DNA of 64,000 bases from Chloroflexota bacterium (GCA_964291655.2 OZ219802.1:1312001-1376000); one strand, 5' to 3'; positions 2,432-53,219 are shown, numbered from the stretch's first letter. Notes: generated from the letters alone by a model not told the origin. A program made the numbers and translations.

Positions 2432-3448
2432 TTAGTGTCTCAGCGACCTGATAATCGGACCCTCTGCCAACATCTGCGCGAGTTGCCCGGCGCGGTCAAC
2501 CCGTCCGAAATAGTTGCAGGGAATGACGTCGAACGGCTCCAGGCGGCGCATGAGTTCATCGAGCAGCAAGTTCTGGCCGATATTGTCAGTGGCGTAGTGA
2601 GGCAAACGCACCAGGGCGATGCCGTGCTCGCGGCAGGCCGCTACTGTCTCCGACCCCGCCGAGACTTGCACCACAGTTTGCACGCCAGCCTTTGCCAGCA
2701 ACGGAAATGCGCTGGGCGGATAGGCGTAGCCGCCGGCAAACTTCGCGTGCATGCGTCCGGTGAGCTGCGCCGGGTCGCCCGTCATGATACGGGGCACCGC
2801 GCCGATGCGCGCGGCTTCCTGCATTTCCGGTAGCGTCAGCATGAGTTCTACGACGTCGCCGACGGTCTCCGGCTCTTCGCGCGCAAAGAGCGCGTTGATG
2901 TATTGCCGGTGCGCATAGTCAACCGGTGTATGAATGCATGCCAGCGGATACCCAAGCAACTGCGCGGTATCGGGCCCGATGCGGTGCATGTCTTCGTGCT
3001 CCCGCAAGCGTGCCGCCATGAAGTCGAAGATGCAGGCGCGCGCCTCAGTTTCGGGTACACCTTCCCAAATGAGATAGTCGGCGTTGACCTCCATGAAGTC
3101 GGCGACGAGCGAAGCTGAGATGCCGACACTGTTCGTATGGTGGGAAATGAATGCGTCTATTGGGGTGCCCTTTGCCGCCAGTTGTACCCCAAGCAGCATC
3201 TCTTGCACGTGCAGGTTAATGCCGACGAGCGCAGTGCGAATCGGTGTTTCTGCCGGGCCGTGGGATATGCGCACGTCGCCGTAGGGATTACGAAAGCGCT
3301 CCTGATCGTAGAGTGCCTGCTGCCAAGCAGGCAGAGCGGCATACTCGTCGCGGCGTCGCTGTAGTTGGCGCTCTATGGCCGCCTGACCCCTGGGGTCAAG
3401 CTCGCGGCCGATTTCGATGGACGTCTCGTACAAATCACGTAGAGTCAT
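2432..3448 (-). CDS. NIF3-like (NGG1p interacting factor) metal-binding protein, paralog 1
   Basis: MTLRDLYETSIEIG..DPRG, ERFRNPYGDVRI, SHH, CIHTPVD, PHYATDNIGQNLL; clearly homologous to 12736..13701 and 13698..14666. Confidence 0.75.
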   Translation of the reverse strand: MTLRDLYETSIEIGRELDPRGQAAIERQLQRRRDEYAALPAWQQALYDQERFRNPYGDVRISHGPAETPIRTALVGINLHVQEMLLGVQLAAKGTPIDAFISHHTNSVGISASLVADFMEVNADYLIWEGVPETEARACIFDFMAARLREHEDMHRIGPDTAQLLGYPLACIHTPVDYAHRQYINALFAREEPETVGDVVELMLTLPEMQEAARIGAVPRIMTGDPAQLTGRMHAKFAGGYAYPPSAFPLLAKAGVQTVVQVSAGSETVAACREHGIALVRLPHYATDNIGQNLLLDELMRRLEPFDVIPCNYFGRVDRAGQLAQMLAEGPIIRSLRH

Positions 3449-3576: not shown

Positions 3577-3719
3577 CCCATCTGTACAATGGGTGAGTGC
3601 CTCGACTCCGGTTAGAGGGACCAATGAGGATGCTATTCTTACCCGCGTTTCGCATCCTGACCGGACGGCAGGCCACGGAAACCCGACAGGAAGCCATCGT
3701 TTCCGGCGAGGCAGGGAAG

Positions 3720-5078
3720 ATGTTGCGGCGAGTTGCGATTGTTGGCGGAGGTATTTCAGGTCTGGCCGCCGCCTGGGCGCTTAGTCATCACCCGGACCGC
3801 TTTGACTTCCGGCTGTACGAGGCGCAGGCCCAGATTGGCGGGAATGCGATTACGGCCGATATGCCGCAGGAAGACGGCTCCTCAATCCCTTTCGACATTT
3901 CCGTCACCGCCTGTATCCCGTCGGTCTACCATCACATTCTCTTGCTGATGGAGCAATTTGGCATTGATCTGATCGATACCAAGTTTAGCTACAGCGTGAA
4001 ATACCGCGGCCAAGTGTATGCCCACGACTTCGATTCCGAAATTAGAGAGCAACTGCGGTTCGAGATCCAGAAGTTCCAGCAACTCCTGCGGCGTCTCCAC
4101 TGGTTTGGCGGGCTGACTCGTTCCCAGTCGAAGCTGCTCAACGCTCTCAACCCCTTCAACTACCTAAGCATGGGGACGCTGCTGAATTGGGGAGCCTATT
4201 CCGGTGATTTCAGATTCAAGATTCTGAAGCCGATGTTCGTCAATTTTCTCATGGCGACGAACGTGTTCGATATGCCCGCGTCGCTCTTTGCGCGGTATCT
4301 TGAATTCTTCGACATCGAGAGCGCCACGCCGATGCAGACGTGGGACCAGGGAACGCGGCGTATCTACGAGAATCTATCGGCTGGTTTCCAAGACAAGATC
4401 TACCTCAGTAGGCCGGTACGCAAGGTGTGTCGACAGGAATCCCGCGTCGTGGTGGAGGACGAAGCCGGTGGCCGAGAGGTCTACGATGAAGTCATCTTCG
4501 CCTGCAACGCGAACCAGACGCTGATGATCCTCGACAAGCCCACGTTTCTGGAGCGGTATATTCTCTCTTCAATTCGCTACGAGAGCGAGCTGCACAACCA
4601 CACCGTCGTCCACTCGGATTCCTCAGTCTTGCCGGACAACGAGGTGAAGCCTCTGACAACCCGGAGCAATCACATCGAACAGTACGGCGCCAGGCCGGAC
4701 AACTATGAAATCACGTACATCATGCACAACCAGCAACCGTGGGCTAATCGCTCGGATAAGCCGTGCCTGGTGACGTATAACCCGATCAGTCCCATCGATG
4801 AGCGAAAGGTCGTGAAGAAGTGGTGGTTTCAGCACATCGTCCACGACGTGCGTCACGTCGCGTGGCTCGTGAACATCTTTCGCTTCATTCAGGGCAAGCG
4901 GCGGACGTGGCACTGCGGCGCGCACACCCTGGTCAACAGTCAAGAGACCTGCTTCGTGACCGGGCTCGCAGCGGCACGGCAGCTCGGTGCGAACTACCCC
5001 TTTGACAATCCCGGGGCAAGGCGCATGTTCAACTACTACGGCAGGATCATGTACGGTTGGCGCTTCAGGAAGGCGTAG
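3720..5078 (+). CDS. FAD-dependent oxidoreductase, COG2907-like (predicted lipid desaturase/reductase)
   Basis: N-terminal VAIVGGGISG dinucleotide motif, YEAQAQIGG, C-terminal IQGKRRTWHCGA...SQE; ATG 3720 preferred over the ORF-track start 3597. Confidence 0.75.
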   Translation: MLRRVAIVGGGISGLAAAWALSHHPDRFDFRLYEAQAQIGGNAITADMPQEDGSSIPFDISVTACIPSVYHHILLLMEQFGIDLIDTKFSYSVKYRGQVYAHDFDSEIREQLRFEIQKFQQLLRRLHWFGGLTRSQSKLLNALNPFNYLSMGTLLNWGAYSGDFRFKILKPMFVNFLMATNVFDMPASLFARYLEFFDIESATPMQTWDQGTRRIYENLSAGFQDKIYLSRPVRKVCRQESRVVVEDEAGGREVYDEVIFACNANQTLMILDKPTFLERYILSSIRYESELHNHTVVHSDSSVLPDNEVKPLTTRSNHIEQYGARPDNYEITYIMHNQQPWANRSDKPCLVTYNPISPIDERKVVKKWWFQHIVHDVRHVAWLVNIFRFIQGKRRTWHCGAHTLVNSQETCFVTGLAAARQLGANYPFDNPGARRMFNYYGRIMYGWRFRKA

Positions 5079-5206
5079 GGCTGCATGCCGCGGCTGCTCC
5101 TGAGTGTCTCAACCCTGTCAGCGAGTCTTGCCGCGACACCGCCCGCTAGCAAACCGTAGCACGGAAGCTTGTCCCCCGCTGGAGCGGCTGCGCCAGGGCG
5201 GAGAAG

Positions 5207-5430
5207 ATGGATTCCCGCGTGCGCGGGAATGACGGATGCGGTCAGCTTCCGTGGCAATGACGGATACTGCCCGCTTCCGCCGTGGCACGGCAATGACCGA
5301 TGCTCTCCGCTTCCGCCGTAGCGCGGGGGCTTGTCCCCCGCTCTTGTGCTTGAGCACGAAGGCTGAAGACCCGGTGGTGAAATGTGGTTGCGGGAAAGAG
5401 AAGATGAATTCCGGCTTGCACCGGAATGAC
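5207..5430. repeat. REP-like palindrome cluster
   Basis: ATGGATTCCCGCGTGCGCGGGAATGAC 5207..5233, GTAGCGCGGGGGCTTGTCCCCCGC 5318..5341, a further GGAATGAC copy ending near 5430. Confidence 0.8.
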
Positions 5431-5532
5431 GGACTGGGGTGTTGCCTGGTTTAAAGAGCTGGCGGGCCGATTCTTAAAGAGTCGACACAACCGATTACGC
5501 AACTTGGGGCTGTGCAAACTCCCGCTGAGGCA

Positions 5533-6585
5533 TCAAGAAGTCGCGTTGCCGTTTTCGCTCACGTCGGAATAGAATTGGGCGCAGTAGCGACGGTACCTGG
5601 TGATCTCGCCGTCGGAACGGCAGAGGCGCGGGCGGGACTGATACCGTTTGCGGCTCCAAATGACCTCATCTTGCCGTACTTCCCATACTTGCTGCGACGC
5701 GGTAAACCAGTTCATGATTGGCGCGCGCATGCCCACCGGCAGAAATCCCAGGCCTGCGAGCCAGCGTTTCGGCTTGCGCAACTCCCGCACTTGCGAGGCC
5801 AGCGACATGTCGATGAACGTGCCGTCCACCGGTGTCGCCAGCACCCAGAGACGCATGTCCATACCGATCGAGTGTTCGCGAATGTCCACGAATGAGTAGC
5901 CAAGCCCGTGGACATGCGTGTCGGCGGTAAGATCAAACGTGAGTTTTGCGACTCTCGCAATCGAACGGGTGGACCTGAAGTTGAAACGGCTCCTCAGATA
6001 GGGACCGTCCACAGACACCGGCTCAATACGTTCCACCTTGCCAAAGCCGTGGATGTAGCGCAGGTGGGCCAGGTCCACCGCGTTTTCCGAAGTCTCCTGG
6101 GGATGGCCGGCAAAGCGCACCGTGCGGATCGCGAGATCGCACCAATCGTCATCGTCGGACGCAACCGCGGGTAGGTGCCATTGCGGCTCCCGATCTTGAA
6201 TGCCATACCACGCAAAGATCATGCCGACGATCTCCTGCGTCTCAAACACCCGCAGGACAGTGTGCCGTGGCGCCGGGGCATACGGCGTGGCCACGCACGT
6301 GCCGGTGGCATCGAACTCATAGCCGTGAAATGGACATACCAGCCGGCCATCACGCACGCGCCCCCCGGCAGCAGGGCTCAGGTCGGAGCCCAGGTGCGGG
6401 CAATAGGCCTCGGCAACGCAGATTTGGCCACTATCGTCGCAATACACGACGATGTTCTCACCCATCCAGGTCTTGTGGATGAGCTTTTCTTTCTCGATGT
6501 CCTTGCGGCTGGCGACGAAGTACCAACCCTCCGGAAATGGAGAAGGTATGGCAGCAGACACGAGCATGGGGGAGGAGGTTTGCAT
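5533..6585 (-). CDS. Rieske non-heme iron oxygenase, sterol-acting type (Neverland/DAF-36, KshA, SdmA-like)
   Basis: FPEGWY; Rieske CPHLG...CPFHG; mononuclear Fe motif ENAVDLAHLRYIH; C-terminal QDEVIWSRKRY..P.LC..DG.I..YRRYCAQFY typical of this subfamily. Confidence 0.85.
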   Translation of the reverse strand: MQTSSPMLVSAAIPSPFPEGWYFVASRKDIEKEKLIHKTWMGENIVVYCDDSGQICVAEAYCPHLGSDLSPAAGGRVRDGRLVCPFHGYEFDATGTCVATPYAPAPRHTVLRVFETQEIVGMIFAWYGIQDREPQWHLPAVASDDDDWCDLAIRTVRFAGHPQETSENAVDLAHLRYIHGFGKVERIEPVSVDGPYLRSRFNFRSTRSIARVAKLTFDLTADTHVHGLGYSFVDIREHSIGMDMRLWVLATPVDGTFIDMSLASQVRELRKPKRWLAGLGFLPVGMRAPIMNWFTASQQVWEVRQDEVIWSRKRYQSRPRLCRSDGEITRYRRYCAQFYSDVSENGNATS

Positions 6586-6615
6586 AACTGAAATCCGGAC
6601 ACACTAAGTTGAGGA

Positions 6616-6649
6616 TTGACATGTGAGTGTCTGTCGGGTAGTGTACACT
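6616..6649 (+). promoter_or_regulatory. Candidate sigma70 promoter with overlapping palindromic operator
   Basis: TTGACA 6616..6621, 17-bp spacer, TAGTGT 6639..6644; AGTGTACACT 6640..6649 overlaps the -10. Confidence 0.45.
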
Positions 6650-6826
6650 TATAATAACATATGTCGTGTACATCCCCTACTGCCGCTAGGTTTACTATTG
6701 CCAGCGACTACATTTCGCTTCCCAATTTTCGCCCTACCCATTGCCCGTGAAGCCGAGTCATCACTTTCCGGTGGTGCGATGCGCCAGGGCGATCTGGACC
6801 AATCCTGACCCCTGGAGGCAACGCAA

Positions 6827-8860
6827 GTGACAATCGCAACCGACCGTGTAACCACCCATGAGCTGACGTTGCCTCAAGAACTCGTCCTGATGCTCCTCAA
6901 TGAGGAGACCGGCTACTTTCGCCAAGTGGCCGGCTGGGACCTCAACTGCGCCATCATCGGCGGCGTATTAGCGGAACTCTCGCTGAGAGCCCGTATTGAC
7001 ACAGACATGGAGTCTCTCAAACTCCTGGATCCGACTCCGACGGACAATCCAGTCTTGGATCCAATTCTGGAAAAGATTGCCGAGGAACCGGAAGCACATA
7101 ACGTGCAGTATTGGATCGAGCGGCTTGTTTTTCGCGCCCCGGCAATCGTCGACCAGATCATGGAACGCTTGGTTGAGTTGAAGATTCTGGACTACCACGA
7201 CGGTGAATTCTGGACGCTGTCCCGGTCTTCGTGGCGGACGGAACTGTACACCGACTTCCGTGAAGTCACTGCGGCGGAGTTCGTCGAGACACGCGTGAGC
7301 CGGGCGATCTTCGATAATGAGATTCCCAGCCCACGGGATGTCATCATCATCGCCCTTCTCAATACGTGCGATGTCCTGCGCTTCATATTTCAACTCGAAG
7401 AGGCCTCAGAGGAGCGAATCCAGACTATCTGTAGGATGGAGTTGATTGGCCGGTCCATCGCGGATGCGGTAGCCAACAACTTTGCCGGAGGCATGCTCCG
7501 GCGCTCCGCCCTTGCCAAATCGATTCCGGTTGTCCCATTGCACAAGGTTTTGCTGAATCCGCATTTGCGCAGCGGCAACATTGCGGCGATCTTTGCGGAA
7601 TTTGGAAATGAGTACGGCCCGGTGTTTCAGTTGCGCCCGCCCTTTTCCGAGCCACTGTATTTCATAGGCGGGCCCCGCGTAAATCAATGGGTGCAACGAA
7701 ACGGGCGGCAGTACCTACGGGCGCGGGATTACTTTGCCGACTTCGAGAAAGTCTTCGGCGCGTCCGGGCTCATACCCGCGGTGGATGGGGCCGACCACTT
7801 CCGGCTGCGCAAGGCCATGTCACCGGGGTATTCACGCGAGAGATTGGAAGCGCAACTGGATGAGGTCTATGGCAACGCCCGCACGTATATGGCGGATTGG
7901 AAGGTCGGTGACTCTTACTCTGCGCGGTCGCTGTGCCGGCGGATGATCAATGCGCAAATTTCGCCGTTCACCGTCAGCATTGATTCACAAGACATCGTCG
8001 ACGATCTCATGGCATACAAAGAACGGGGCCTCTGCACACACGTCGCGCGGGTTCTACCCAAGTTCATGCTCTATACCCCCGGCATGAGACGCCGGGCGAA
8101 AATCGTCAATGAGGTGACGAACCGGGTCCAGCAAGTCCATACGCCCGCCCAGCGCGCGGGTCGTCCACGGGATCTTGCGGATGACCTTCTCAGCCTTCAG
8201 GCCAGCGACCCGCAGTTCCTGCCGGAGTCGAATATGCCGTTCATGCTCTCGGCGCCGCTGCTTGCCAGCATGTACTTGGGCGATGCGCTGAGCTTTGCGG
8301 TCTACGCCATGGCGGCGCAGCCCGAAATCTACGCACGGATACAGAAAGAAGCCGACGCCTTGTTTAGCGATGGCGATCCCCAGGGCAAAGACTTCACCCT
8401 AGAAGCACTGGACGTGACGCACCGCTTCATCATGGAGGTCATGCGCATGTACCCGGTCGTGCCCATGTCTATTCGCAACGTCATGAACGCCTGCGTGGTG
8501 GAAGGCTTTGAGTTGCCGGTGGGCGCGCGGATCCATATTGCTACGACCGCCTCACACTACATGGAGAAGGCCTTTCCCGAACCCTTCAAATTCGACATTG
8601 AACGCTATACGGCGCCGCGCTTTGAGCATCGCAGCCGGGCGTACGCCCCCTACGGCCTGGGTACGCACACTTGTCTCGGCACCCGGTTTATGGAGCGGCA
8701 ACTGACAATCAACCTACTCATGATCGCGCACTACTTCACGCTCGAGGTATCCCCCGATAAGTTCAAGCACAAGCTCACGTTCAGCCCGTTCCCGTCCAAC
8801 AAACCGAGCGGAAAGCTGAAGTTCGTCATTTCCGATCAGAGACGCGAGATAAACGTCTAA
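6827..8860 (+). CDS. Cytochrome P450 with N-terminal GOLPH3/Vps74 (GPP34)-like domain
   Basis: First ~225 aa LTLPQELVLMLLNEETG...GGVLAELSLRARI...PTPTDNPVLD...WIERL resemble GPP34; C-terminal P450 has ExxR (EVMR), FDIERY and heme motif YGLGTHTCLG; GGAGG RBS before GTG. Confidence 0.85.
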   Translation: MTIATDRVTTHELTLPQELVLMLLNEETGYFRQVAGWDLNCAIIGGVLAELSLRARIDTDMESLKLLDPTPTDNPVLDPILEKIAEEPEAHNVQYWIERLVFRAPAIVDQIMERLVELKILDYHDGEFWTLSRSSWRTELYTDFREVTAAEFVETRVSRAIFDNEIPSPRDVIIIALLNTCDVLRFIFQLEEASEERIQTICRMELIGRSIADAVANNFAGGMLRRSALAKSIPVVPLHKVLLNPHLRSGNIAAIFAEFGNEYGPVFQLRPPFSEPLYFIGGPRVNQWVQRNGRQYLRARDYFADFEKVFGASGLIPAVDGADHFRLRKAMSPGYSRERLEAQLDEVYGNARTYMADWKVGDSYSARSLCRRMINAQISPFTVSIDSQDIVDDLMAYKERGLCTHVARVLPKFMLYTPGMRRRAKIVNEVTNRVQQVHTPAQRAGRPRDLADDLLSLQASDPQFLPESNMPFMLSAPLLASMYLGDALSFAVYAMAAQPEIYARIQKEADALFSDGDPQGKDFTLEALDVTHRFIMEVMRMYPVVPMSIRNVMNACVVEGFELPVGARIHIATTASHYMEKAFPEPFKFDIERYTAPRFEHRSRAYAPYGLGTHTCLGTRFMERQLTINLLMIAHYFTLEVSPDKFKHKLTFSPFPSNKPSGKLKFVISDQRREINV

Positions 8861-8899
8861 TGCACCATGGATCGCCCGAGAAACCGGGAAGGAGAGGGA

Positions 8900-9937
8900 C
8901 TAAACGGGCTTAAGAGCCAGGAAACAATATAGCGGCGTGAAGATCCCGGTCTTGCCGCCCGCGACGTAGGCGTTGGCAGTCCGATCCAGCAGCTTGACGA
9001 CACGGGCGGAGCCCGATGGGAACACCCCCAGCACCTCGGCCAACCTGGATGCCCCGAAAACTGCCTTGCGGCCCAGCGGAAGCCTGATAAGGGCGTTGCC
9101 GAGCGTTCCGTGCCGGGTCTCCATGGGCCGATACCACGGCGTGGTCGGACCGTTCTCCCCAACAGCCCGATCCCTCCCTTCTATGACCTGAAAACCCGCC
9201 GTTTCGAGGTCGCGGTTTACCTCGTCCATCGTCGCTATTTCTTTGAGCGCGATCCCGTGCATCAGTTCTTTCTCAATAGCTCGATGTCGCTCGTCACCGG
9301 GATTGAACTTGCTCGTCATGCACATTTCCTGGCCCCAGAACAGGGCCCCGGGTTTCAGCACGCGGTAGATCTCGGCAAACGCGCCCGCCTTGTCCGGCGC
9401 ATGGCACGTCGATTCAATCGCGTACCCCCGGTCGAATGTGTCGTCCGCGATAGCGTCCATGTTCATGAAGCTACACGCGAGGTAGTCGATCGCATGGTCG
9501 AGTCCCGCCTCGGCGTCCAACGATCTCGCCTTGTCCAACTGGATTTCGTTGCTATTGACCCCGACTACCCTGACTCCGGCCTCCCGGACGACGCGGCGCA
9601 GCGGGCCGCCGACCCCGCAACCGACATCGATCACCGTCATGCCCTCGCGCAACTCCAACTTGGCGATCATCAGCCGCTGGTGACGGATCTTGGAGTCCTC
9701 CAGGCTTTCATGGGGCGACAGCGGTGCGAAGTGAAGGGACTCACCCCAACCGAACTCCATGAACTCGCCGCAGAGGTCGTAGTATTCCTTGACGGTTTCG
9801 GTGTGGTCGTAGCCCGTCGGGACGGCGTCCTCCACGTGTGCTTTGTCCATCCAGCCATCGAAGCGATTCACGCGACTGTGGACATCCGTTCCACGGTATT
9901 GAGCCTTCAGCCGGTTGGATAGTTTGCGGATTTGCAA
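8900..9937 (-). CDS. Sterol 24-C-methyltransferase (ERG6/SMT family)
   Basis: YYDLCGEFMEFGWGESLHFAP, IDVGCGVGGP, YAIESTCHAP, IYRVLKPG and Sterol_MT_C-like tail VAGGKTGIFTPLYCFLALKP. Confidence 0.9.
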   Translation of the reverse strand: MQIRKLSNRLKAQYRGTDVHSRVNRFDGWMDKAHVEDAVPTGYDHTETVKEYYDLCGEFMEFGWGESLHFAPLSPHESLEDSKIRHQRLMIAKLELREGMTVIDVGCGVGGPLRRVVREAGVRVVGVNSNEIQLDKARSLDAEAGLDHAIDYLACSFMNMDAIADDTFDRGYAIESTCHAPDKAGAFAEIYRVLKPGALFWGQEMCMTSKFNPGDERHRAIEKELMHGIALKEIATMDEVNRDLETAGFQVIEGRDRAVGENGPTTPWYRPMETRHGTLGNALIRLPLGRKAVFGASRLAEVLGVFPSGSARVVKLLDRTANAYVAGGKTGIFTPLYCFLALKPV

Positions 9938-9964
9938 GGATCTTTCCTTTGCGGAGTACTGTTC

Positions 9965-12424
9965 CTACTCGTAGCGCCGCTGCACGGCCTCGATTTCCAG
10001 GTCCAACTCATCCGCCCAGCGCTTCACCTTGGATCGCAGCCGGACATTCTGGTAGGCGCCCCAGATTGTCATCGCAGGTGGAACCAGCAGAATGGACACT
10101 AACAGCGAGTAGAGGATCGTGATGGATGCCGCAATTGCGAACTGCTGGGAAGCAAGCAGGGGCGAGGCAATTAGCGCGCCAAGTCCGAGCGCCGTCGTGA
10201 GCGCGGAACCCAACAGCGCCGAACCGGTGGTGGCGAGTGTCCGAATTGCCGCTTGCTCCGGGTCCCGACCGCGGGCGTATTCCTCCCGGTAGCGATGAAT
10301 CACGTGGATGGTGTAGTCCACCCCGATACCTACCGAGAGCGCCGTGATGATAGACGTGACGAGCGAATAGGGAATATCCAGCAGCGCCATGGTGCCCAAC
10401 ACCGAGATGAGCACGAGCACAATCGGGCCCACCGCGATGACGGATAGCACCGGCTGGCGCACCGTGATCCAGAAGAAGAGCGCCAGCACGCCGAGGGCCA
10501 CCGCGATGGTGGTAGTAATCGCTTCTGTCTGCCGTTCAGTAATGGCGTCCGTGATTGTGATACCAATGATGCCCTCAGATGTTGCTGCGATAGCGTTGTC
10601 ATCACCGATCCAGAGGTCCTCCAGGGACTCTTGGATTTGCTTCGCCTGATTGGTATCGCCCGAGTAGGCCGGGAACTGGATCAGCATTGCGTCAGTGCCG
10701 GCCGGATCGTTAACCAGGAGATACGAAAGCGTCGGGTCCAGGGATTGGAGCCTGTTGAGGAATTCCTGCATCAACCCGGCATCAAGTCTCAGTCCCGCCG
10801 AGGCTTCTTGGAAAAGGGCGGCAAGTTCAGAATCGTATTTGTCGCCGGGCTGACCGCTGTCGTGTATCCAGTCTCGCACGAGGAGCTCATACGATGCCTG
10901 GATTGGTCCCGCCGCGGCGGCGGGACGGCTCTCTTCGTCCGCGAAGGCAGCGGTCAAGTCCCGCAGGTTCAACAGCGTGCGGGTCTCTGTGGCCTCCGCT
11001 CTGATGAGCACACTAACTATCTCCGTTGAGCCGCCAATTGCCGCATCAATGGTGTCCAAGTCCGCCATCAGGGTGCCCCCTCTGGGCAGAATGTCGCGGA
11101 TGTTGAACTCAGACTTGATCCCTGTGGCTGCGTACCCCAGCGCGAGCGTAACCCCAAGCACAACAATGAGGTACGGCGCAGGCGCGCGCGTGATACTTTT
11201 GCCCAGCACGGTCGCCAATCCCTCGATTCCGGGCAATGCCGTAGCTACCAAGCGAGGCTGCTTAAGATTGCCCCGGGCTTCCCGCTGCCGGTCGATGATC
11301 GTCCGGCCGGCCGGAAGCAGCGTAAGCATCACGATGAGAGTCATGCCCACACCCAGTCCTGCGATCAAACCGAAATCACCAATGATTCCTATAGGGGAAA
11401 ACAGACTCACCAGCAGGCTCACGATTGTCGTGACGGCGGCCAGTACCAGCGGAATGGTGACTTTGCGCAGTCCGATCTGGGCGGCCGGTACCACCGCCTC
11501 GCCTTCGTGACGCTGCTCCCGGTAGTGCGAGACGATCTGAATCGCGTAGTCGACCGTAAGGCTGATTACGATGATCGGCACCATCGCGGTAAGCTGGTTT
11601 GGCGGTCCGGTGATGCCCAGCGCGTAGGGACCCAGCCAGCCTTCCACACCAACGATCCACATCAGCGAAATAAACAGACCGGCCAGCGTGAGCAATAAAT
11701 CAGTCAACGTACGCAGGAAAAGCAGGATTAGCCCCGCGATGAGCAAGAGCGCCAGCCCGATCAACGGCCCCATGCCTTCTTGGGTAGCTTTCTTGTACTC
11801 GTCCTCGATTATCGCGGGTGAAACGCTGCTCACCTGCAGCGTACCCTCAGACGCGGCTGCAAGTTCGTCAATTTTGCGTTCAGCGTCGTCAATGCGCTCA
11901 TCACCCGTGTCCCGCAGACGAACAATGGCAATCGCCACCTCTGTACCATCCGTATCGGTGCCGGTCAGGGCGTCAAGCGCCGCCTGAATCTCGGGTGGGC
12001 CGCGGGCCGCGTTGATTTGCTCCTGTGTGATGGACGTGACGTTGTCCGTTTGGAGCACAGCCTTGATCAACAACACGGGCGCGACGAGGGGATTGACCGG
12101 CGCGAAGAGCTCCTGAACGGCAGGATCGGCGACGATCTCGTTGATCAGGGCATCCATCTGCGCCAGACCGTCAGGCGTCAGCGCGTCTCCACGGAAGATG
12201 AGCGTCACCACATTGGCTTCGCCGGATTCGCCAAAGAGCTCATCGATTTCAGCAATGGCGTCGGCAACGGTACTCCCTGGAGGAAGTATTGCCTCGTCTC
12301 CGGGAGGAGGCGCACGCCGTACCGCCCCGGCAGTCAGGAAAACGGTTATGTTCAGGATGACGAAAATCGTGATCCAAGGGCGGGCTGTAACAAAGCGGCT
12401 CAGCCTACCAAGTTGATTCTCCAT
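9965..12424 (-). CDS. MMPL/RND-family lipid transporter
   Basis: 819 aa with duplicated architecture, SLTVDYAIQ and GIGVDYTIHV TM motifs, two extracytoplasmic loops; ends 27 bp before the SMT start. Confidence 0.85.
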   Translation of the reverse strand: MENQLGRLSRFVTARPWITIFVILNITVFLTAGAVRRAPPPGDEAILPPGSTVADAIAEIDELFGESGEANVVTLIFRGDALTPDGLAQMDALINEIVADPAVQELFAPVNPLVAPVLLIKAVLQTDNVTSITQEQINAARGPPEIQAALDALTGTDTDGTEVAIAIVRLRDTGDERIDDAERKIDELAAASEGTLQVSSVSPAIIEDEYKKATQEGMGPLIGLALLLIAGLILLFLRTLTDLLLTLAGLFISLMWIVGVEGWLGPYALGITGPPNQLTAMVPIIVISLTVDYAIQIVSHYREQRHEGEAVVPAAQIGLRKVTIPLVLAAVTTIVSLLVSLFSPIGIIGDFGLIAGLGVGMTLIVMLTLLPAGRTIIDRQREARGNLKQPRLVATALPGIEGLATVLGKSITRAPAPYLIVVLGVTLALGYAATGIKSEFNIRDILPRGGTLMADLDTIDAAIGGSTEIVSVLIRAEATETRTLLNLRDLTAAFADEESRPAAAAGPIQASYELLVRDWIHDSGQPGDKYDSELAALFQEASAGLRLDAGLMQEFLNRLQSLDPTLSYLLVNDPAGTDAMLIQFPAYSGDTNQAKQIQESLEDLWIGDDNAIAATSEGIIGITITDAITERQTEAITTTIAVALGVLALFFWITVRQPVLSVIAVGPIVLVLISVLGTMALLDIPYSLVTSIITALSVGIGVDYTIHVIHRYREEYARGRDPEQAAIRTLATTGSALLGSALTTALGLGALIASPLLASQQFAIAASITILYSLLVSILLVPPAMTIWGAYQNVRLRSKVKRWADELDLEIEAVQRRYE

Positions 12425-12735: not shown

Positions 12736-13701
12736 CTAGTTGCGCTTGACGCGCTCGAAGTAGTTACATGCTATGACGTTGAGCGGCCCTAGGCGCTGCT
12801 CAACCTTATCGAGCAATAGGTTGAGACCCACATTATCGCACGCGCCATGGGGCATGCGCACCCAGCCCATACCGAGTTCTTCCGCTATCTTCTGGTGCTC
12901 AGGCGGGCAGCCAATGGTGACGAACGTGCCGACTCCGGCCTCCCTCAGCAGCGGGATCACCTCAAAGGGAAACATCCAACCACCGCCGTCCTGGTGGAAG
13001 ATCCGGCCCGCCGGCTGCTCGGCATCACCTGCCATAATGCGCGGGATCGCGCCAATGCGCGCCGCACCTTGGAACTCCGGGAGCGCCAGCAACGCCTGCA
13101 CCACGTCTCCCACCGTCTCCGCGTTCGCTGCCGCGATGGCGCCGCGCACACCCCGGCCGTGATGGAAGTCGGCGGGCGTATGGATGCACGCCAGCGGAAA
13201 CTCCAGCAGTTGCGCCATGTCGATGCCGTTGCGGTTGAAGTCCTCGGCGTAGTTCCAGCGGTCGGTCATCATGTCCGCGATGTGGGGCTCGGCGTCGGCC
13301 CGGGCAACACCCGCGCCTTCAAGCAGGTCCACGAGATAGGGCACTGTATCATAGATCAGCGTATCCGCCGGTACCCCGATGCCGTTGGTATGGTGGGAGA
13401 TGACGGCATCGATTCGCGTGCCGTTGGCGCGCAGATGGTCCGCCAGCAGAAGCTCCTGCGTGCCGATGTTTATGCCCATGAGGATGGTATCGAGTTCCGT
13501 GTCCTCCGGGCCGTTCACGATGCGCACGTCGCCGTAGGGATTGTTGAAGCGCTCCTGGTCGTAGTACGGCTTGCGCCAGTCCGCCAGCGCTGTATACTCC
13601 TGCCGTCGCCGTTCAAGCTGGCGGTCAAGGGCTTCACGCCCCCTAGGATCGACCTCACGGCCGATTTCGATGGAAGTTTCGTAGAGCTCGCGTAAGGTCA
13701 T
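12736..13701 (-). CDS. NIF3-like protein, paralog 2
   Basis: Same motifs as paralog 1 (SHHTNG, CIHTPAD, PHGACDNVGLNLL). Confidence 0.75.
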   Translation of the reverse strand: MTLRELYETSIEIGREVDPRGREALDRQLERRRQEYTALADWRKPYYDQERFNNPYGDVRIVNGPEDTELDTILMGINIGTQELLLADHLRANGTRIDAVISHHTNGIGVPADTLIYDTVPYLVDLLEGAGVARADAEPHIADMMTDRWNYAEDFNRNGIDMAQLLEFPLACIHTPADFHHGRGVRGAIAAANAETVGDVVQALLALPEFQGAARIGAIPRIMAGDAEQPAGRIFHQDGGGWMFPFEVIPLLREAGVGTFVTIGCPPEHQKIAEELGMGWVRMPHGACDNVGLNLLLDKVEQRLGPLNVIACNYFERVKRN

Positions 13702-14666
13702 CGCTCGTTACGCCTAATTCGCTCGAAGTAGTTGCACGGAATGACATTGAGCGGTCCCAAGCGGCGCTCTACCTCATCCAGCAGTAAATTGATGCCAATG
13801 TTGTCGCACGCCGCGTGGGCAATGCGCACAATCGCTACGCCCGCCCCCTGTGCCGCTAACGCTTGCGTCGGTGTGCACCCAATTTGCACCACGGTGTTCA
13901 CGCCTGCCTTGCCGAGCAGCGTGTACGCGTCCGGCGGCAAGCCGTACCCGCCGCCAAACTTGAGCAGCATGCGCCCGGCAGGCCATCTTGCTTCCCCACT
14001 CATCACACGCGGCTCAACGCCAATATGCGCCGCGCTCTGCACCTCCGGTATCACCATGAGCGCCCGCACCACGTCAGCAACGGTCTCGGGCCTTGCAGCT
14101 TCCACCACAGGCCGGACGCCTTCGCCAATGTAGTAATCTGCCGGCGTATGGATGCAGGCCAGCGGGAAGCCGAGCAACGCTGCCATGTCGGGGCCCATGC
14201 GTGCCGTATCTTCAAGCGCCTGCTCTTTTTCCTCGATGTAACGGTTGATGCACGCCTCGGCGTCTCCGCGCGGCACGCCTTCACCTGCCAGAAAATCTAT
14301 CGCTACCGGCATGAAGTCATGTACCAGCGAGATAGCGATGCCGATACCATTGGTATGGTGCGCGATTACGGCATCGATCTTGGTACCCTTGCTGCGCAGC
14401 CGGTCGGCCAGCAGGAGTTCGTCGAGGCCGATGTTGATGCCGAGCAGGACTGTCTGAAGCTCCACGTCCGCCGGGCCGTTGACGATACGCACGTCGCCAA
14501 AGGGATTGCGAAACCGCTCTTGATCGTAGAAGGGCTGCTCCCAATCGGGCAGGGCTGCGTATTCCGCCCGGCGCTGCTCGAGTTGCTGTTGAAGAGCTGC
14601 CTCTCCCCGCACGTCAAGCGCCATGCCGAGTTGTATTGAAGTCTCGTAGAGTTCTCGCAGTGTCAT
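13698..14666 (-). CDS. NIF3-like protein, paralog 3
   Basis: MTLRELYETSI start aligned with the paralogs; ATGA overlap with paralog 2 (translational coupling). Confidence 0.75.
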   Translation of the reverse strand: MTLRELYETSIQLGMALDVRGEAALQQQLEQRRAEYAALPDWEQPFYDQERFRNPFGDVRIVNGPADVELQTVLLGINIGLDELLLADRLRSKGTKIDAVIAHHTNGIGIAISLVHDFMPVAIDFLAGEGVPRGDAEACINRYIEEKEQALEDTARMGPDMAALLGFPLACIHTPADYYIGEGVRPVVEAARPETVADVVRALMVIPEVQSAAHIGVEPRVMSGEARWPAGRMLLKFGGGYGLPPDAYTLLGKAGVNTVVQIGCTPTQALAAQGAGVAIVRIAHAACDNIGINLLLDEVERRLGPLNVIPCNYFERIRRNER

Positions 14667-14988
14667 GTTGGCACTCTTCGTTTCGCTAACTTGCACCTAT
14701 TGTAGCGCATTGGCAAACCGCAGCCGAAATCGAGGTGCGTAAAGCCCTTGGCAAGGTGAGCAAACAGCTTTCCACCTGGCATTTTGCTTGAGAGAGCACC
14801 CGCTCCACGCAGCCATGGCGGCTCAAGTTGCACACTACGAGCGGCCGGCAGTTGTGCGGTCAGTCCTCATACAGGCTAATGGGGGCAGCAAATCAGCATT
14901 TTGGCGCTCTCACCCGACAAATGCGGGCTCTATCGTTTAGAATTGCGTTGTAGCATGAATGCCGCATCAAACACAAGGATGTGACACG

Positions 14989-16333: not shown

Positions 16334-17419
16334 ATGAGCGACCCGCGCTATACTGTAGAGAAACTTTCTCTCGCCCTCGAGGAGCATGTCGTGAGCAAGC
16401 AAACAGTGCTGCCGCCGTTGCAGTCCGAAGAACAACTCATGGCGCAGATGACCGCGCCCACGCCGGAAGTGTGTACAGCGGTGCAGGCGCTGGACGGCGA
16501 CATCATGGTGCTGGGTGTGGCGGGCAAGATGGGCCCTACGCTCGCGGAGCTATTGGTGCACGCGGGGGCCAAGCGCGTGATCGGCGTTTCGCGCTTTTCC
16601 TCTCCGGACTCGCGCCGTTACTTGGATAGCGTCGGCGTGGAGACGGTGGCCTGCGACTTGCTGGACGACGCAAGCGTGGCCAAGCTGCCGGATGCGCCGT
16701 ATCTTTACTTGCTGGCGGGGTTCAAGTTCGGCTCCAGCGGCGCGCCTTCCCTGAACTGGGCCATGAATACGCTCGTGCCGGCCAAGCTCATGGAGCGCTT
16801 TCCCAATTCCCGCATGGTCTACGTGTCTTCCGGCAACGTCTACCGCTTCATGCCGGTGGACGGCGGTGGCGCTGATGAAGACGCGCCCCTGGGGCCGGTG
16901 GGTGAATACGCCGAATCCCGCCTGGGCGGCGAGCGCCTGGTGGAATACTACGCAGAAAAGAACAGCACCCCTACCCTCATCGTGCGGCTCTTCTACGCCA
17001 CGGAACTGCGCTACGGCATCATCCTGGATATCGCTACCAAGGTGAATGACCGGACGCCAATCGACCTATCTATGGGCTACGTAAATCAGATTTGGCAGGG
17101 CGACGCCTGCGACATGCTCGCCCGCTCGTTCCCGCTCTGCGCAAGTCCTGCTGACGTGATTAATCTGACCGGCACGGAAACCCTTTCCGTGCAAGCGGTG
17201 GCTGAGGCTTTGGGTGAACGGCTCGGTGTCGCGCCGATCTTCACCGGGAAGCCGGAGGCTACGGCGCTACTGGGCGATGCGACGCGCTACGTGGAGACCT
17301 TCGGCGCGCCCCGCGTACCGGCGGAACAGATTATCGACTGGGTTGCCACGTGGGTCAAGCACGAAGGCGCGACGCTGGGCAAGCCGACGAAATACGAGAG
17401 CAGGACGGGGGATTTCTAA
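16334..17419 (+). CDS. NAD-dependent epimerase/dehydratase family protein
   Basis: LGVAGKMG Rossmann motif, SSGNVY, GEYAESRLG (YxxxR variant). Confidence 0.75.
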   Translation: MSDPRYTVEKLSLALEEHVVSKQTVLPPLQSEEQLMAQMTAPTPEVCTAVQALDGDIMVLGVAGKMGPTLAELLVHAGAKRVIGVSRFSSPDSRRYLDSVGVETVACDLLDDASVAKLPDAPYLYLLAGFKFGSSGAPSLNWAMNTLVPAKLMERFPNSRMVYVSSGNVYRFMPVDGGGADEDAPLGPVGEYAESRLGGERLVEYYAEKNSTPTLIVRLFYATELRYGIILDIATKVNDRTPIDLSMGYVNQIWQGDACDMLARSFPLCASPADVINLTGTETLSVQAVAEALGERLGVAPIFTGKPEATALLGDATRYVETFGAPRVPAEQIIDWVATWVKHEGATLGKPTKYESRTGDF

Positions 17420-26622: not shown

Positions 26623-27887
26623 TGTACAGACCGGGGACATAGGTAACAGATGTTCGGGTAGATAGGTTACACATTTTGTGCTCTGAGGTCTATGGTTTTT
26701 ACTCTTTGGATCGAGAAGTACACGTCCCAGACACCGTCCGTTCGGGTGGGTCGCAGGGCGACTTGCTTGTGCGTGAAGGCCCTGCCCACACGGAGCCGTC
26801 TGCCTTGGAAGGAGATGCGGCCGGAGACATCGACGCTGCGTACGCGGTCGTCGGGAGCGTAGGCGAGGGCAGGCAAGGTCTCTGGGAAAGGGCGAGGACT
26901 AGGCGTGTATCTGGTAATGGGAGTGTCGAGATCGAGGGCATGGTGTGGGCGTTCCAAGTTGTAGAAGTGGCGCCAGGTGTCAAAGGCGCGCTGGCAATGG
27001 TCCAGGTCGGTAAAGGTGGTCCCTGCCAGCAGTTCGCTCTTGAGGGAGCGGTGGAAGCGTTCCAGCTTGCCGAGTGTCTGGGGATGGTAGGGTCGGCTGT
27101 GCAGGACGTTGATGCCCAGCTGCATGAGCCAGACGGTGAGGGGCGTGAAGGGCTGGGCACTGTCGTTACCCCAGGGAGAGCCGTTGTCCATGAGCATGGC
27201 CTGGGGCAAGCCGTAGCGGCGAAAGACAGCGGTGAGGCGGTCTTGGACCGTCTCTCCCCGCTCGTTGGCACAGGCCTGTAACCCGAGGTTGAAGCGGGAG
27301 TGATCGTCTAGGAGGGTGAGAGGATGACAGCGGTTCTGCTGCATGACGAAATGTCCCTTGAAGTCCATCTGCCACAGCTCGTTGGGCTGGGGTCGTTCGA
27401 AGCGCACATGGGGCGTGTGCTTGGCGCTCTGGGCTGGATCGATGAGCCCATGGCGTTTGAGAATGGCATTGATGGTGCTCTTGGCCGGCACGTCGGTGAC
27501 CCCCTGGTCCTGCAGCATCCGGCGCAGCACGTGTGCGCCTTTCTTCGGATGCGCCAGGCGCAAGGCGATGATGCGCTCCTCCAGCGCCGGGCGCGTGCGG
27601 TGCGGACACGTGTGCGGCCGCCGCGACCGGTCGTGCAAACCGTCTTCGCCAGCTTTCGCATACCGCTCCAGCGTCTTGTACGCCGTCTTGCGACTGATCT
27701 CCAGACGGCGACACAGCTCGCTGATGTTGGCCCCTTCCATCAGTGCCAGTGCAATGAACTCCTTGCGTTCAGACACAACCGTACTCTCCTTCCAAGGCAT
27801 GGCGCTCCTCCATCTGTAAGAATCTCCATGCCTTAAGGTGTAACCTATGTGCCCGAACATGTGTAACCCATGTACCCGGTCTATACA
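26623..27887 (-). mobile_element. IS481-family insertion sequence, 1265 bp
   Basis: ~50-bp imperfect IRs TGTACAGACCGGGGACATAGGTAACA.. / ..TGTAACCCATGTACCCGGTCTATACA; 5-bp target duplication GGGAG at 26618..26622 and 27888..27892. Confidence 0.92.
26667..27800 (-). CDS. IS481-family DDE transposase
   Basis: MPWKE..., HTH, WQMDFKG, LLDDHSR, MDNGSPW, HPQTLGKLERFH. Confidence 0.93.
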   Translation of the reverse strand: MPWKESTVVSERKEFIALALMEGANISELCRRLEISRKTAYKTLERYAKAGEDGLHDRSRRPHTCPHRTRPALEERIIALRLAHPKKGAHVLRRMLQDQGVTDVPAKSTINAILKRHGLIDPAQSAKHTPHVRFERPQPNELWQMDFKGHFVMQQNRCHPLTLLDDHSRFNLGLQACANERGETVQDRLTAVFRRYGLPQAMLMDNGSPWGNDSAQPFTPLTVWLMQLGINVLHSRPYHPQTLGKLERFHRSLKSELLAGTTFTDLDHCQRAFDTWRHFYNLERPHHALDLDTPITRYTPSPRPFPETLPALAYAPDDRVRSVDVSGRISFQGRRLRVGRAFTHKQVALRPTRTDGVWDVYFSIQRVKTIDLRAQNV

Positions 27888-52600: not shown

Positions 52601-53219
52601 TCCGGCCTCCGACGCAGCGCACGCCTTGGCCGCCTCCGCCGCCCGCGGCCGGCAACTGGCCCACCTCCTCGACTCCGACACCCCCGTGCCCGGCGTCACC
52701 ACAAGCAACCTGCGGCCCGATATGATCGCCATCGCCCAGCCCGCCACCACCGACGACCGCAACATGACCGGCGACGACTTCGGCCTCACCGCCGGCTGGG
52801 GGCACTTTGGCAGCGGCGAAGCCGTCATGCCAGGCCAGGGCAAGGCGATCGAGCGCCCTTACACCCCAGCCGAACGCGAGGCCCTCAACCATGCGCATCC
52901 CGCCGCTGGCAATGCGGAACGCGACGCCCTAGGCAATGCACAACCCACGTCCGCCACGCCCGCCGGACACGACACGCTAGCCGTCCTCGGCGAAACCACC
53001 TACGACATCTACCTCAACGACCGCGCCTACTGGCGCAACGTCCCCGCCAACGTCTGGCGCTACAAACTCGGCGGCTACCAAGTCCTCAAGAAATGGCTCT
53101 CCTACCGCGAACAAACAGTCCTAGGCCGCCCCCTCAAGTTAGACGAGGTGCTGCATTTCACAGACACCGCCAGACGCATCGGGGCTATACTGCTGGTGAC
53201 GGATTCGGATTTCATGTAG
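49656..53219 (+). CDS. Single-polypeptide restriction-modification protein (Type IIG / Type ISP-like, N6-adenine MTase)
   Basis: N-terminal PDF...EVK nuclease-like motif, LGVWYTP, LDPCCGTG (motif I), GNPPY (motif IV), YRPFD, C-terminal VWRYKLGGYQVLKKWLSYR as in the ISP C-terminal domain; no helicase motifs seen. Confidence 0.85.
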   Translation: MNEKKLITAVESYFADLRRIRASGGATDERSLYPPLSTLLNAVGDALKPKVHCVSDMANQGAGHPDFGLYLKRKSSGSSSKAGKKSSGDLPERGVVEVKSLGDDAWLTAESAQVSRYWERYRLVLVTNCRDFVLLGEDARGRPAKLETFRLAGSAAEFEERLQKPRAFAREVGAGLGEYLCRTLSHRAVLAEPRDLAWLLASYARDGLARVEAAGDAPSLTAVRNALEEALGVRFEGERGAAFFRSTLVQTLFYGVFSAWVLWSRQLPPPVGAFEWRTAVWHLRAPVLRALFQQLSDPARLQTLGLVEVLNWTAAALDRVDKEAFFASFSEGEAVPYFYEPFLEAFDPVLRKQLGVWYTPVEVVRYMVARVDKALKDDLGIEDGLADERVYVLDPCCGTGAYLAETLRRIAENLQSRGTGALTGAQVKRAATERVFGFEIMPAPFVVAHLQVGLTMQALDAPLAEDGDERAGIFLTNALTGWEPKTQKPLPFPELEQERERADLVKQNAPILVVLGNPPYNGFAGMAVDEERELSAAYRTTKRVRRPEGQGLNDLYVRFFRMAERRIAEETGQGIVCFISNYSWLDGLSFTGMRERYLEAFDTIRIDNLHGDRIISEYAPDGRTSETVFSIRGKSPGIKVGTSITMLSKRLANSSEGKQILYRDFDQARADERRQALLDSLSAPRIDSGYANLDPEIRLGLPFKPMAVSEDWFDWPALPELFPASFPGVKTSRDSFLVDVDLNRLKARVVDYFDGELSHEEIARRYPGVMRSTSGFNARSIRNALLDRGGPIEGGFIHYAYRPFDTRWLYCETEGGLLDRPRSEYGPHVFEGNVWLEAREREAREDFSRGTLCRTLADNFGNGLSSFFPAWLRDTGLGADETTVQRIPNLSPAAQRYLDRLGLGVEDLFYHALAVLHDPAYRQANAGALRMEWPRIPLPGWPELSVSSPAGRGGSRTAPTVVPHGDAPAADHSVVPLKTGTHPASDAAHALAASAARGRQLAHLLDSDTPVPGVTTSNLRPDMIAIAQPATTDDRNMTGDDFGLTAGWGHFGSGEAVMPGQGKAIERPYTPAEREALNHAHPAAGNAERDALGNAQPTSATPAGHDTLAVLGETTYDIYLNDRAYWRNVPANVWRYKLGGYQVLKKWLSYREQTVLGRPLKLDEVLHFTDTARRIGAILLVTDSDFM

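Follow-up and report, generated by a model that had tools for sequence, protein, structure and literature searches.

What would a bacterium do with a set of sterol-tailoring enzymes if it makes no sterols of its own? The question is raised by a 64,000-nucleotide stretch of DNA from a Chloroflexota bacterium (GCA_964291655.2, OZ219802.1:1312001-1376000; hereafter, the window), which carries an island of five genes encoding a protein of the sterol methyltransferase (SMT) family, a Rieske oxygenase, a cytochrome P450 fused to a GPP34 (GOLPH3) domain, a flavoprotein, and an MMPL/RND transporter. An initial annotation had named these families and proposed a module that takes up exogenous sterols and remodels them instead of making them de novo. 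Open reading frame (ORF) calling, Pfam searches, and inspection of motifs bore out the five families, and the genes were intact neighbors, flanked on either side by members of an array of paralogues. On balance, we favor, with reservations, the reading that the five genes are a mobile cassette for the remodeling and transport of exogenous sterols from the sponge holobiont in symbionts that do not make sterols.

Conservation, habitat, and decay of the island

We compared the window with 80 loci (the SMT gene plus 10 kb on either side) from contigs representing one genome per species, picked solely by SMT similarity; seven of these loci end early at contig ends. In tblastn searches with 14 window proteins, the P450 fusion was found in 64 loci (59 to 82% identity), the RND transporter in 61, the Rieske gene in 56, and the gene for the flavoprotein, which counts as an accessory part of the cassette, in 41 (72 to 86% identity); the nine flanking window genes were found in 0 to 3 loci each. 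Thirty-six loci had the complete set of five genes, 19 others had four of them, and 13 had SMT alone, tallies that overstate independence because the compared genomes are kin. When the 1,274 ORFs of the 80 loci and the window were clustered blind, the same five families ranked first to fifth (79, 62, 61, 52, and 40 of 81). The families ranked next were a LppX/LprAFG-like lipoprotein (20 loci) and a major facilitator superfamily (MFS) transporter (19 loci), and all others reached at most 6 loci. Gene order was kept as well: the RND gene lay on the same strand as SMT and no more than 400 bp upstream in 54 of 61 loci, and the P450 gene was convergent with SMT and within 400 bp of it in 56 of 64. 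The co-occurrence elsewhere on which the initial annotation depended was thus found, and the five genes are a real unit, grouped beyond chance.

Seventy-six of the 80 loci come from Chloroflexota, Dehalococcoidia, or SAR202 metagenome-assembled genomes (MAGs). The remaining four are from Alphaproteobacteria, Rhodospirillaceae, Acidimicrobiales, or Acidimicrobiia, with SMT identities of 75 to 80%, and the G+C content of the island was 3 to 7 points under that of both flanks in three of these four, the Alphaproteobacteria, Rhodospirillaceae, and Acidimicrobiales contigs, which carry near-identical cassettes. Such a composition fits recent horizontal transfer across phyla. Among 241 million metagenome records, 83 relatives were found, on contigs with the prefixes LXNI, LXNJ, MKWU, Ga0209xxx, JGIcombinedJ30088, and JGI24796 only; Brown et al. 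(PMC10070321) and a 2025 preprint trace two of the prefixes to metagenomes of the sponges Sarcotragus foetidus and Aplysina aerophoba. In addition, contigs of four DNA runs labeled "sponge metagenome" covered all 30 bins of the island, and one 3,761-base piece from a sponge run spans P450, SMT, and RND with 118 differences (∼97% identity). The cassette is found almost only in sponge-associated bacteria.

Within the genus, the island occupies a defined insertion site. The three genes at its borders (Table 1) are mutually paralogous (for the left one, the N terminus is paralogous to the other two), are about 320 to 340 amino acids long, and had no Pfam or NCBIfam match. The border family gave 2 to 4 matches in each of 17 genus genomes (4 in 13 of them), normally three in tandem; in several genomes (G009, G012, G016, and others; G numbers denote compared genomes), the three paralogues are contiguous with nothing inserted. 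G008 carries the island at the same site as the window; its P450 fusion (G008:C19:65759-67788) is split by one TAA stop. G002 and G015 carry P450 and RND without SMT at this site, and G003, G004, G005, G007, and G013 carry P450 or RND fragments only. These remnants comprise P450 C-terminal fragments of 241 to 335 amino acids, together with stretches of P450 and RND that are broken by internal stops. Since G002 and G015 keep the pair without SMT and the remnants elsewhere are of P450 and RND, the P450-RND pair is the core of the cassette, and SMT, Rieske, and flavoprotein genes are tailoring additions. Part of the genus is losing the island, and this decay is ongoing. The retained cassette is under purifying selection: compared with a cyclase-less congener, the ratio of nonsynonymous to synonymous substitution (dN/dS) was 0.07 to 0.20 for all five genes (flavoprotein, 0.07 to 0.09).

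The kinds of genes involved were known already, namely bacterial SMTs, clusters for sterols in sponge symbionts, and the fusion of GPP34 to P450. One study reports SMT1/ERG6 as enriched in MAGs of Ircinia symbionts (PMC9531527). The CSG (ERG24-CYP51-LSS; PMC9531527) and the msb locus (PMC7074536) are clusters of sterol-family enzymes from sponge symbionts, as is the window cassette; both contain a cyclase and CYP51, whereas the cassette has neither and adds a transporter, the GPP34-P450 fusion, and a flavoprotein. A literature search, with supplementary files outside its scope, returned no paper joining these genes into one cassette. The five-gene combination, of which the initial annotation knew no characterization, thus looks new as a combination, although SMT enrichment (PMC9531527) and the GPP34-P450 fusion (PMC11706023) have been published separately. 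Not found in print were the union of the genes into a cassette, its occurrence without a cyclase, its tie to ERG4/ERG24-type reductases, and the divergent SMT clade.

Sterol synthesis genes and the enzymes of the cassette

The genome to which the window belongs (3.47 Mb, 2 contigs, 97.55% complete) was searched with profiles for genes of de novo synthesis. The window had been noted to hold neither squalene synthase nor oxidosqualene cyclase (OSC); this is true and extends to the whole genome, in which no cyclase domains (PF13243 and PF13249), no SQS_PSY domain (PF00494), and no squalene epoxidase (PF08491) were found. None of 16 congeners had a cyclase, 10 of them being single-contig genomes, and in the class as a whole, 0 of 98 genomes passed the OSC model TIGR03463 (best score of 274 bits versus a cutoff of 851). 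The window genome is unable to make sterols or hopanoids de novo, as the initial annotation had supposed for sterols. At E ≤ 1e-100, an SMT orthologue was found in 35 of the 98 class genomes, with a cyclase absent in 10 and present in 25. We considered whether the cyclases of these relatives are OSCs that would allow de novo synthesis, and rejected this: the two tested passed the hopene-cyclase equivalog (770 and 787 bits versus 431), i.e., are of the squalene-hopene type, and no genome passed the OSC model. Because 10 of 35 SMT-bearing genomes lack a cyclase, the tested cyclases are squalene-hopene cyclases (SHCs), and none of the 98 genomes reaches the OSC cutoff, SMT-family genes in this lineage occur without sterol synthesis as a rule.

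The genome does carry two tandem ERG4_ERG24 genes (G000:C2:1069601-1071849), 240 kb upstream of the window, scoring 126.2 and 122.9 bits versus a cutoff of 27; matches were found in 0 of 14 control genomes. One of the proteins aligned to the solved Delta14-sterol reductase 4quv (E = 1e-32, residues 59 to 402). Compared with the 4quv/ERG4/ERG24/DHCR7 family, the pair represents a shorter form (profile positions 75 to 432), and it matched no NCBIfam model. Tallied by hand across the 98 genomes, SMT and ERG4/ERG24 genes were both present in 31, SMT alone in 4 (two of these ≤80% complete), ERG4/ERG24 alone in 8, and neither in 55, a table that is descriptive and not a test, the genomes being kin. 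In one genus, the reductase pair lies 5 to 10 kb from SMT, and the congeners lacking ERG4/ERG24 (G003, G004, G005, G007, and G009) are all among those without an intact P450-RND pair. The pair in the window genome (locus L180, 9451-11852) sits among genes for solute-binding proteins. A full-length homologue (449 to 458 amino acids, 424 to 436 bits) was seen in the complete congeners G001, G012, and G016 and in G027 (another genus), with a truncated copy in G014.

None of the five island proteins passed an NCBIfam equivalog cutoff, and they are therefore distant from curated bacterial families. The methyltransferase carries Sterol_MT_C at residues 288 to 344 (gathering cutoff of 21.7 bits) and is the sole such gene in the genome. 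Among representatives of 50% clusters, its nearest named relatives were SMTs: a sponge-symbiont SMT of the Acidimicrobiia "Ca. Poriferisocius" (41% identity) and a rice cycloartenol-C-24-methyltransferase-1-like protein (40% over the full length, E = 2.2e-70), with a fungal sterol 24-C-methyltransferase following at 36%. All of its listed Atlas neighbors were SMT-type clusters, and cyclopropane fatty acid (CFA) and mycolic-acid methyltransferases appeared as weak PDB matches (E = 1e-7 to 1e-12). Region II, DVGCGVGGP (DxGxGxxGP; residues 104 to 112), is intact. The five residues that the 2025 preprint calls essential in yeast (H90, D125, G129, P133, and E195) are kept, H69 and E175 being among the counterparts; this mapping used the spacing of motifs and an alignment with representative SMTs in place of yeast ERG6 itself. 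Together with a tree placing the protein in a distinct clade (support of 1.0), here called SLHF, these matches uphold its placement among SMTs and not among tocopherol or cyclopropane types.

The bacterial SMTs of Brown et al. 2023 (PMC10070321) and of Brown and Welander (2025 preprint) resemble the window protein in Sterol_MT_C, Region II, and the essential residues, and they share its habitat, since contigs of Aplysina and Sarcotragus sponge metagenomes hold relatives. They differ in context: those SMTs mostly occur with an OSC and sdmAB in de novo clusters, with an OSC in the cluster or MAG for 13 of 24 bacterial SMTs (PMC10070321), whereas the window's genome has no OSC. They also differ in sequence, as the window SMT has SLHF rather than SFHF in Region I, Y81M, and T78G/S and is ∼41% identical to the canonical symbiont type. 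None of the contigs named in the main texts of these studies (LXNI01016685, LXNI01006544, JGIcombinedJ30088_10000835, _100209763, _1000330310, and Ga0114945_...) was among 80 metagenome loci. Both SMT types share a neighborhood in one genus (loci L035 and L040 and a third; G074 and G075), where a canonical paralogue (YEYGWGRSFHF, about 40 to 43% identical) sits 6 to 10 kb away from the divergent gene. In two comparisons, synonymous divergence (dS) of SMT was 0.32 and 0.58, roughly half that of neighboring genes (0.54 to 0.94 and 1.0 to 1.26), and across phyla, SMT identity was 75 to 80% versus 61 to 68% for P450, RND, and Rieske proteins. The lower dS and higher cross-phylum identity suggest that SMT may have been exchanged separately and more recently than its neighbors.

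The GPP34-P450 fusion has a GPP34 domain at residues 15 to 216 and a p450 domain at residues 245 to 665, both over the Pfam cutoffs. The P450 motifs are present, with ExxR at residue 537 and Cys616 in the heme pocket YGLGTHTCLG. This heme signature begins with Y and not F or W, and a pattern search of the P450 domain for the canonical I-helix acid-alcohol motif, [AG]Gx[DE]T, gave no match. Only residues 12 to 100 of the fusion align with GOLPH3/Vps74 (E = 0.07 to 0.19), which is too weak for mapping of pocket residues. According to the main text of PMC11706023, GPP34 plus P450 ("GPP34_L") accounts for 656 of 663 long GPP34 forms, found in sponge symbionts only and expressed; rare fusions of GPP34 to Rieske domains are also reported there (PMC11706023). 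As presented in that text, GPP34_L has the same architecture and the same taxonomic and ecological spread, including Dehalococcoidia, as the window fusion. The genomic contexts differ: the paper describes only P450 genes near short GPP34 genes, whereas the window fusion is a fixed neighbor of SMT, Rieske, and an RND gene with a sterol-sensing domain (SSD). The words sterol, MMPL, lipid, and methyltransferase have 0 occurrences each in its main text.

The Rieske protein has intact CxH...CxxH (2Fe-2S) and DxxHxxxxH (iron) motifs, and its gene is the only KshA_C gene in the genome. Its best solved relatives were KshA structures (E = 1.3e-29), and it shares the Rieske and KshA_C domains and metal motifs of KshA, Neverland/DAF-36, and SdmA. 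Unlike the KshA and SdmA systems, it has no adjacent reductase gene (KshB or SdmB). In the flavoprotein, GxGxxG lies at residue 50, and Met42 (ATG at 3720), the start chosen in the initial annotation, precedes this motif by nine residues; the ATG at 3720 is likely to be the true start. Its nearest solved relative was the amine oxidase LkcE (E = 1.6e-27), followed by 2b9w (E = 2e-11), listed as a "putative aminooxidase," which we take to be a fatty-acid double-bond isomerase.

The RND protein has 12 hydrophobic segments. Among lipid RND transporters, HpnN moves hopanoids and BstA moves sterols (Methylococcus); MmpL3 and NPC1/Patched are further examples. The window protein resembles this group in its MMPL fold, SSD, and 12 membrane segments, and its NCBIfam scores were all below the cutoffs: HAE3, 213.5 versus 351.9; HpnN, 100.9 versus 751.85 and 68.7 versus 1,100; MmpL3, 45.4 versus 1,400; and BstA, 22.3 versus 1,400. 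Unlike the Bst system, it was not accompanied by recognizable BstB- or BstC-like partners. Elsewhere in the genome, locus L181 (G000:C1:498001-516000) holds an RND/SSD paralogue, 67% identical, with no tailoring genes alongside; its neighbors are a fusion of leucine-rich repeats to a glucose/sorbosone dehydrogenase (a eukaryote-like repeat protein), a gene pair of ORC-CDC6-like and PRTase-CE type, and a transposase of the DDE kind. The genome holds a third RND copy (C1:332586-335033), which is interrupted by an internal TAG.

Proposed sterol remodeling and competing explanations

Read together, these genes would act as follows. A sterol from the host or its community would partition into the cell membrane or be handed over by the SSD-bearing RND protein. 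The GPP34 domain would serve as a membrane adaptor holding the P450 at the cytoplasmic face; an adaptor role for lipid oxygenases fits with the occurrence of GPP34-Rieske fusions. The P450, the KshA-type Rieske enzyme, and the flavoprotein may then oxidize or desaturate the sterol, the SMT-family enzyme would transfer a methyl group from S-adenosylmethionine to a side-chain double bond, and the two ERG4/ERG24-type membrane reductases would reduce the resulting or other double bonds. Finally, movement of the product inside the envelope or out of it would fall to the RND pump and, in other genomes, perhaps also to the LprG-like lipoprotein and MFS pair. The sterol reading gains from the presence of ERG4/ERG24 homologues in the genome and from the confinement of the family to sponge metagenomes.

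Several findings weigh against this reading, beginning with the methyltransferase. Its Region I is FMEFGWGESLHF, compared with the canonical FYEYGWGxSFHF, with the changes F89→L, Y81→M, and T78→G. The change is family-wide: of the 82 ORFs in the SMT cluster, 70 fitted the Region I motif pattern (12 were unmatched), and 67 of these 70 have SLHF, the other 3 being canonical paralogues. Across the family, T78 is replaced by G, S, or N, and 13 of the 70 ORFs have S in place of G86. Brown and Welander (2025 preprint) list 25 residues, GWGxxFHF among them, that every SMT with activity in vitro shares; by motif-spacing mapping, ∼23 of the 25 are kept in the window SMT, and T78 and F89 are lost. We therefore file the protein as an SMT-family member with an altered acceptor site. 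Because Region I departs from the motif of active SMTs, canonical C-24 methylation of desmosterol is not a safe prediction for it.

The other proteins and the comparisons add to the points against. Assignment of the P450 to a subfamily was dropped, since its PDB matches were weak and mixed class II (∼1e-18; taxadiene hydroxylase, CYP51, CYP120, and CYP3A) and its Atlas neighbors were unnamed bacterial P450 clusters. The Rieske protein scored 42.4 bits versus a cutoff of 600 for the SdmA equivalog and is not an SdmA equivalog. The RND protein missed the thresholds of both the HpnN and BstA equivalogs, and no redox partner for the Rieske enzyme or the P450 was found in the island, although no dedicated search for ferredoxins or reductases was made. 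With 25 of 35 SMT-bearing genomes containing a cyclase, of squalene-hopene type where tested, the cassette is not specific to cyclase-less cells, and cells of that kind have hopanoids at hand. Besides the kinship of the genomes behind the tallies, linkage was looser among more distant homologues: of the 23 metagenome loci that are 20 kb or longer, 14 had P450, 3 had all five genes, and 8 had SMT alone. RND pumps are typically exporters, and this makes "uptake" the weakest part of the initial interpretation. What we infer, as opposed to observe, comprises the sterol nature of the substrate, how the steps are ordered, which way the pump works, what GPP34 does, and all of the activities.

The foremost competitor, which we nonetheless judge unlikely, is that a hopanoid or another nonsterol isoprenoid (diploptene, squalene, or a polyprenyl) is tailored and exported. 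The SMT-family enzyme would then methylate a terminal double bond of the isoprenoid, and the HpnN-like RND pump would carry the product. The cyclases of the class are of the SHC type (two tested), most SMT-bearing genomes have a cyclase, and no class genome passed the OSC model; the HpnN models were the best named relatives of the RND protein after HAE3 and MMPL; and the altered Region I would suit a nonsterol acceptor. SMT-like enzymes that methylate squalene and botryococcene also exist. Set against this, the window genome and its 16 congeners are cyclase-less, and the window genome lacks SQS_PSY, yet the genes are under purifying selection. Moreover, the co-varying ERG4/ERG24 genes and KshA_C are known from sterol enzymes, and the HpnN thresholds were unmet.

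An improbable second alternative is modification of a nonisoprenoid membrane lipid, for example, by mid-chain methylation or desaturation of fatty acyl groups through CFA/UfaM/BfaB-like olefin chemistry. The flavoprotein could act as a desaturase, reductase, or isomerase, with 2b9w as its second solved relative; the SMT has a Pfam CMAS match of 57 bits and weak NCBIfam matches to cyclopropane synthases; and LprG-like and MFS lipid carriers lie beside the cassette in 19 to 20 loci. Nevertheless, the protein carries Sterol_MT_C and is far closer to SMTs (40%, E = 2.2e-70) than to CFA-type enzymes (PDB E ∼1e-10 to 1e-12), and the co-variation with ERG4/ERG24 would be left unexplained.

Eukaryotic GPP34 binds phosphatidylinositol 4-phosphate (PI4P). 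GPP34_L is read in the main text of PMC11706023 as a secreted, PI4P-binding phagosome effector; on this account, the GPP34-P450 fusion would bind host PI4P and block phagosome maturation, and its neighbors would be unrelated in function. The same text describes GPP34 proteins as expressed and as enriched in the symbionts of sponges, with none in their free-living relatives (PMC11706023). Three features make the account quite improbable for the island: the fusion has no signal-peptide-like N terminus, the similarity of GPP34 to GOLPH3 is marginal (E = 0.07), and the P450 gene is fixed near SMT (56 of 64 loci), adjoins RND, and decays along with RND and ERG4/ERG24 in the genus. In addition, a P450 requires heme and an electron chain, a need that sits poorly with an effector.

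It is very improbable that the cassette is catabolic, with sponge sterols serving as a carbon source through KshA-like 9-alpha-hydroxylation and P450 side-chain oxidation. KshA enzymes are the best solved relatives of the Rieske protein, and steroid catabolism genes have reportedly been seen in sponge metagenomes (PMC5790920); a methyltransferase, sterol reductases, and a pump of the exporter type, however, serve anabolism or tailoring, and the genome has one KshA_C gene, with no degradation genes in or beside the island (other catabolic markers were not searched for). That the cell makes its own sterol through a cyclase missed or lying in the unassembled 2.5% of a genome that is 97.55% complete and not closed is hardly credible, since cyclase, SQS_PSY, and squalene epoxidase are absent from the genome, cyclases from 16 congeners, and OSC-grade matches from 98 genomes.

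Returning to the remodeling of exogenous sterols, we can extend that reading to a joint one, which we hold to be possible but doubtful: the GPP34-P450 fusion would be the membrane-docked oxygenase of a mobile sterol-tailoring cassette and not a phagosome effector, the SLHF SMT would carry out noncanonical side-chain alkylation, cyclase-less bacteria would turn host sterols into the unconventional sterols of sponges, and tailoring by symbionts would account for part of the "sponge" sterane biomarker signal. Candidates for the alkylation are a non-C-24 position (26-methylation, aplysterol type) or a side chain preoxidized by the neighboring enzymes. 24-Isopropyl and 26-methyl steranes are used as the oldest chemical evidence for animals, and the debate over them turns on the ability of bacteria to make such sterols. 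The published bacterial cases are de novo clusters with a cyclase; the cassette points to a second route, the possible reworking of host sterols. It also unites two separately published signatures of sponge symbiosis, SMT enrichment and the GPP34-P450 fusion, and gives the fusion a concrete, testable biochemical role. Because its Region I is divergent, the SLHF clade is a candidate for the enzymes behind unusual sponge sterol side chains.

Layout of the island and its surroundings

The RND and SMT genes, on the same strand and 27 bp apart with RND upstream, probably form one operon. The GPP34-P450 gene and SMT are convergent and 39 bp apart; on its other side, a 241-bp spacer separates it from the Rieske gene, with which it is divergent. 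Predictions gave 3 promoters (shuffled mean of 3.5) and 8 terminators (6.7), which is not above expectation, and the operon assignment does not draw on them. The remainder of the 64-kb window contained no additional sterol-type genes.

Table 1. Genes of the island and its borders, in window coordinates
Feature	Position	Strand	Evidence or remark
Left border, first of three paralogues	2432-3448	-	Outside the cassette; marks the insertion site
FAD flavoprotein, amine-oxidase family	3597-5078	+	Amino_oxidase 60.4 bits, NAD_binding_8 46 bits, DAO (Pfam)
Rieske oxygenase, KshA/Neverland type, alpha subunit only	5533-6585	-	Rieske 66.9 bits, KshA_C 86.7 bits (Pfam)
GPP34(GOLPH3)-P450 fusion, 677 aa, one ORF	6827-8860	+	GPP34 98.6 bits, p450 128.4 bits (Pfam)
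Divergent SMT-family protein, 345 aa	8900-9937	-	Class I methyltransferase domains and Sterol_MT_C 49.9 bits (Pfam)
MMPL/RND transporter (HAE3-like)	9965-12424	-	MMPL 172.9, Sterol-sensing 48, Patched SSD 37 bits (Pfam)
Right border, second and third paralogues	12736-13701, 13698-14696	-	Same family as 2432-3448

An SDR/epimerase gene (16334-17419) lies 4 kb off the island and was beside the cassette in 0 of the 80 other loci. Farther along the window are an IS481-type transposase (26667-27860) and a type ISP/IIG restriction-modification protein of 1,187 amino acids (49656-53219). The 454-bp gap between the flavoprotein and Rieske genes (5079-5532) is dense in short G+C-rich palindromic repeats (e.g., 5201-5236, 5398-5433, and 5316-5342). 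These repeats have 155 blastn matches genome-wide, and contigs from sponge metagenomes stack and end there, with depths of up to 4,613 per bin. The repeat looks like a dispersed element of the repetitive extragenic palindromic (REP) or miniature inverted-repeat transposable element (MITE) kind.

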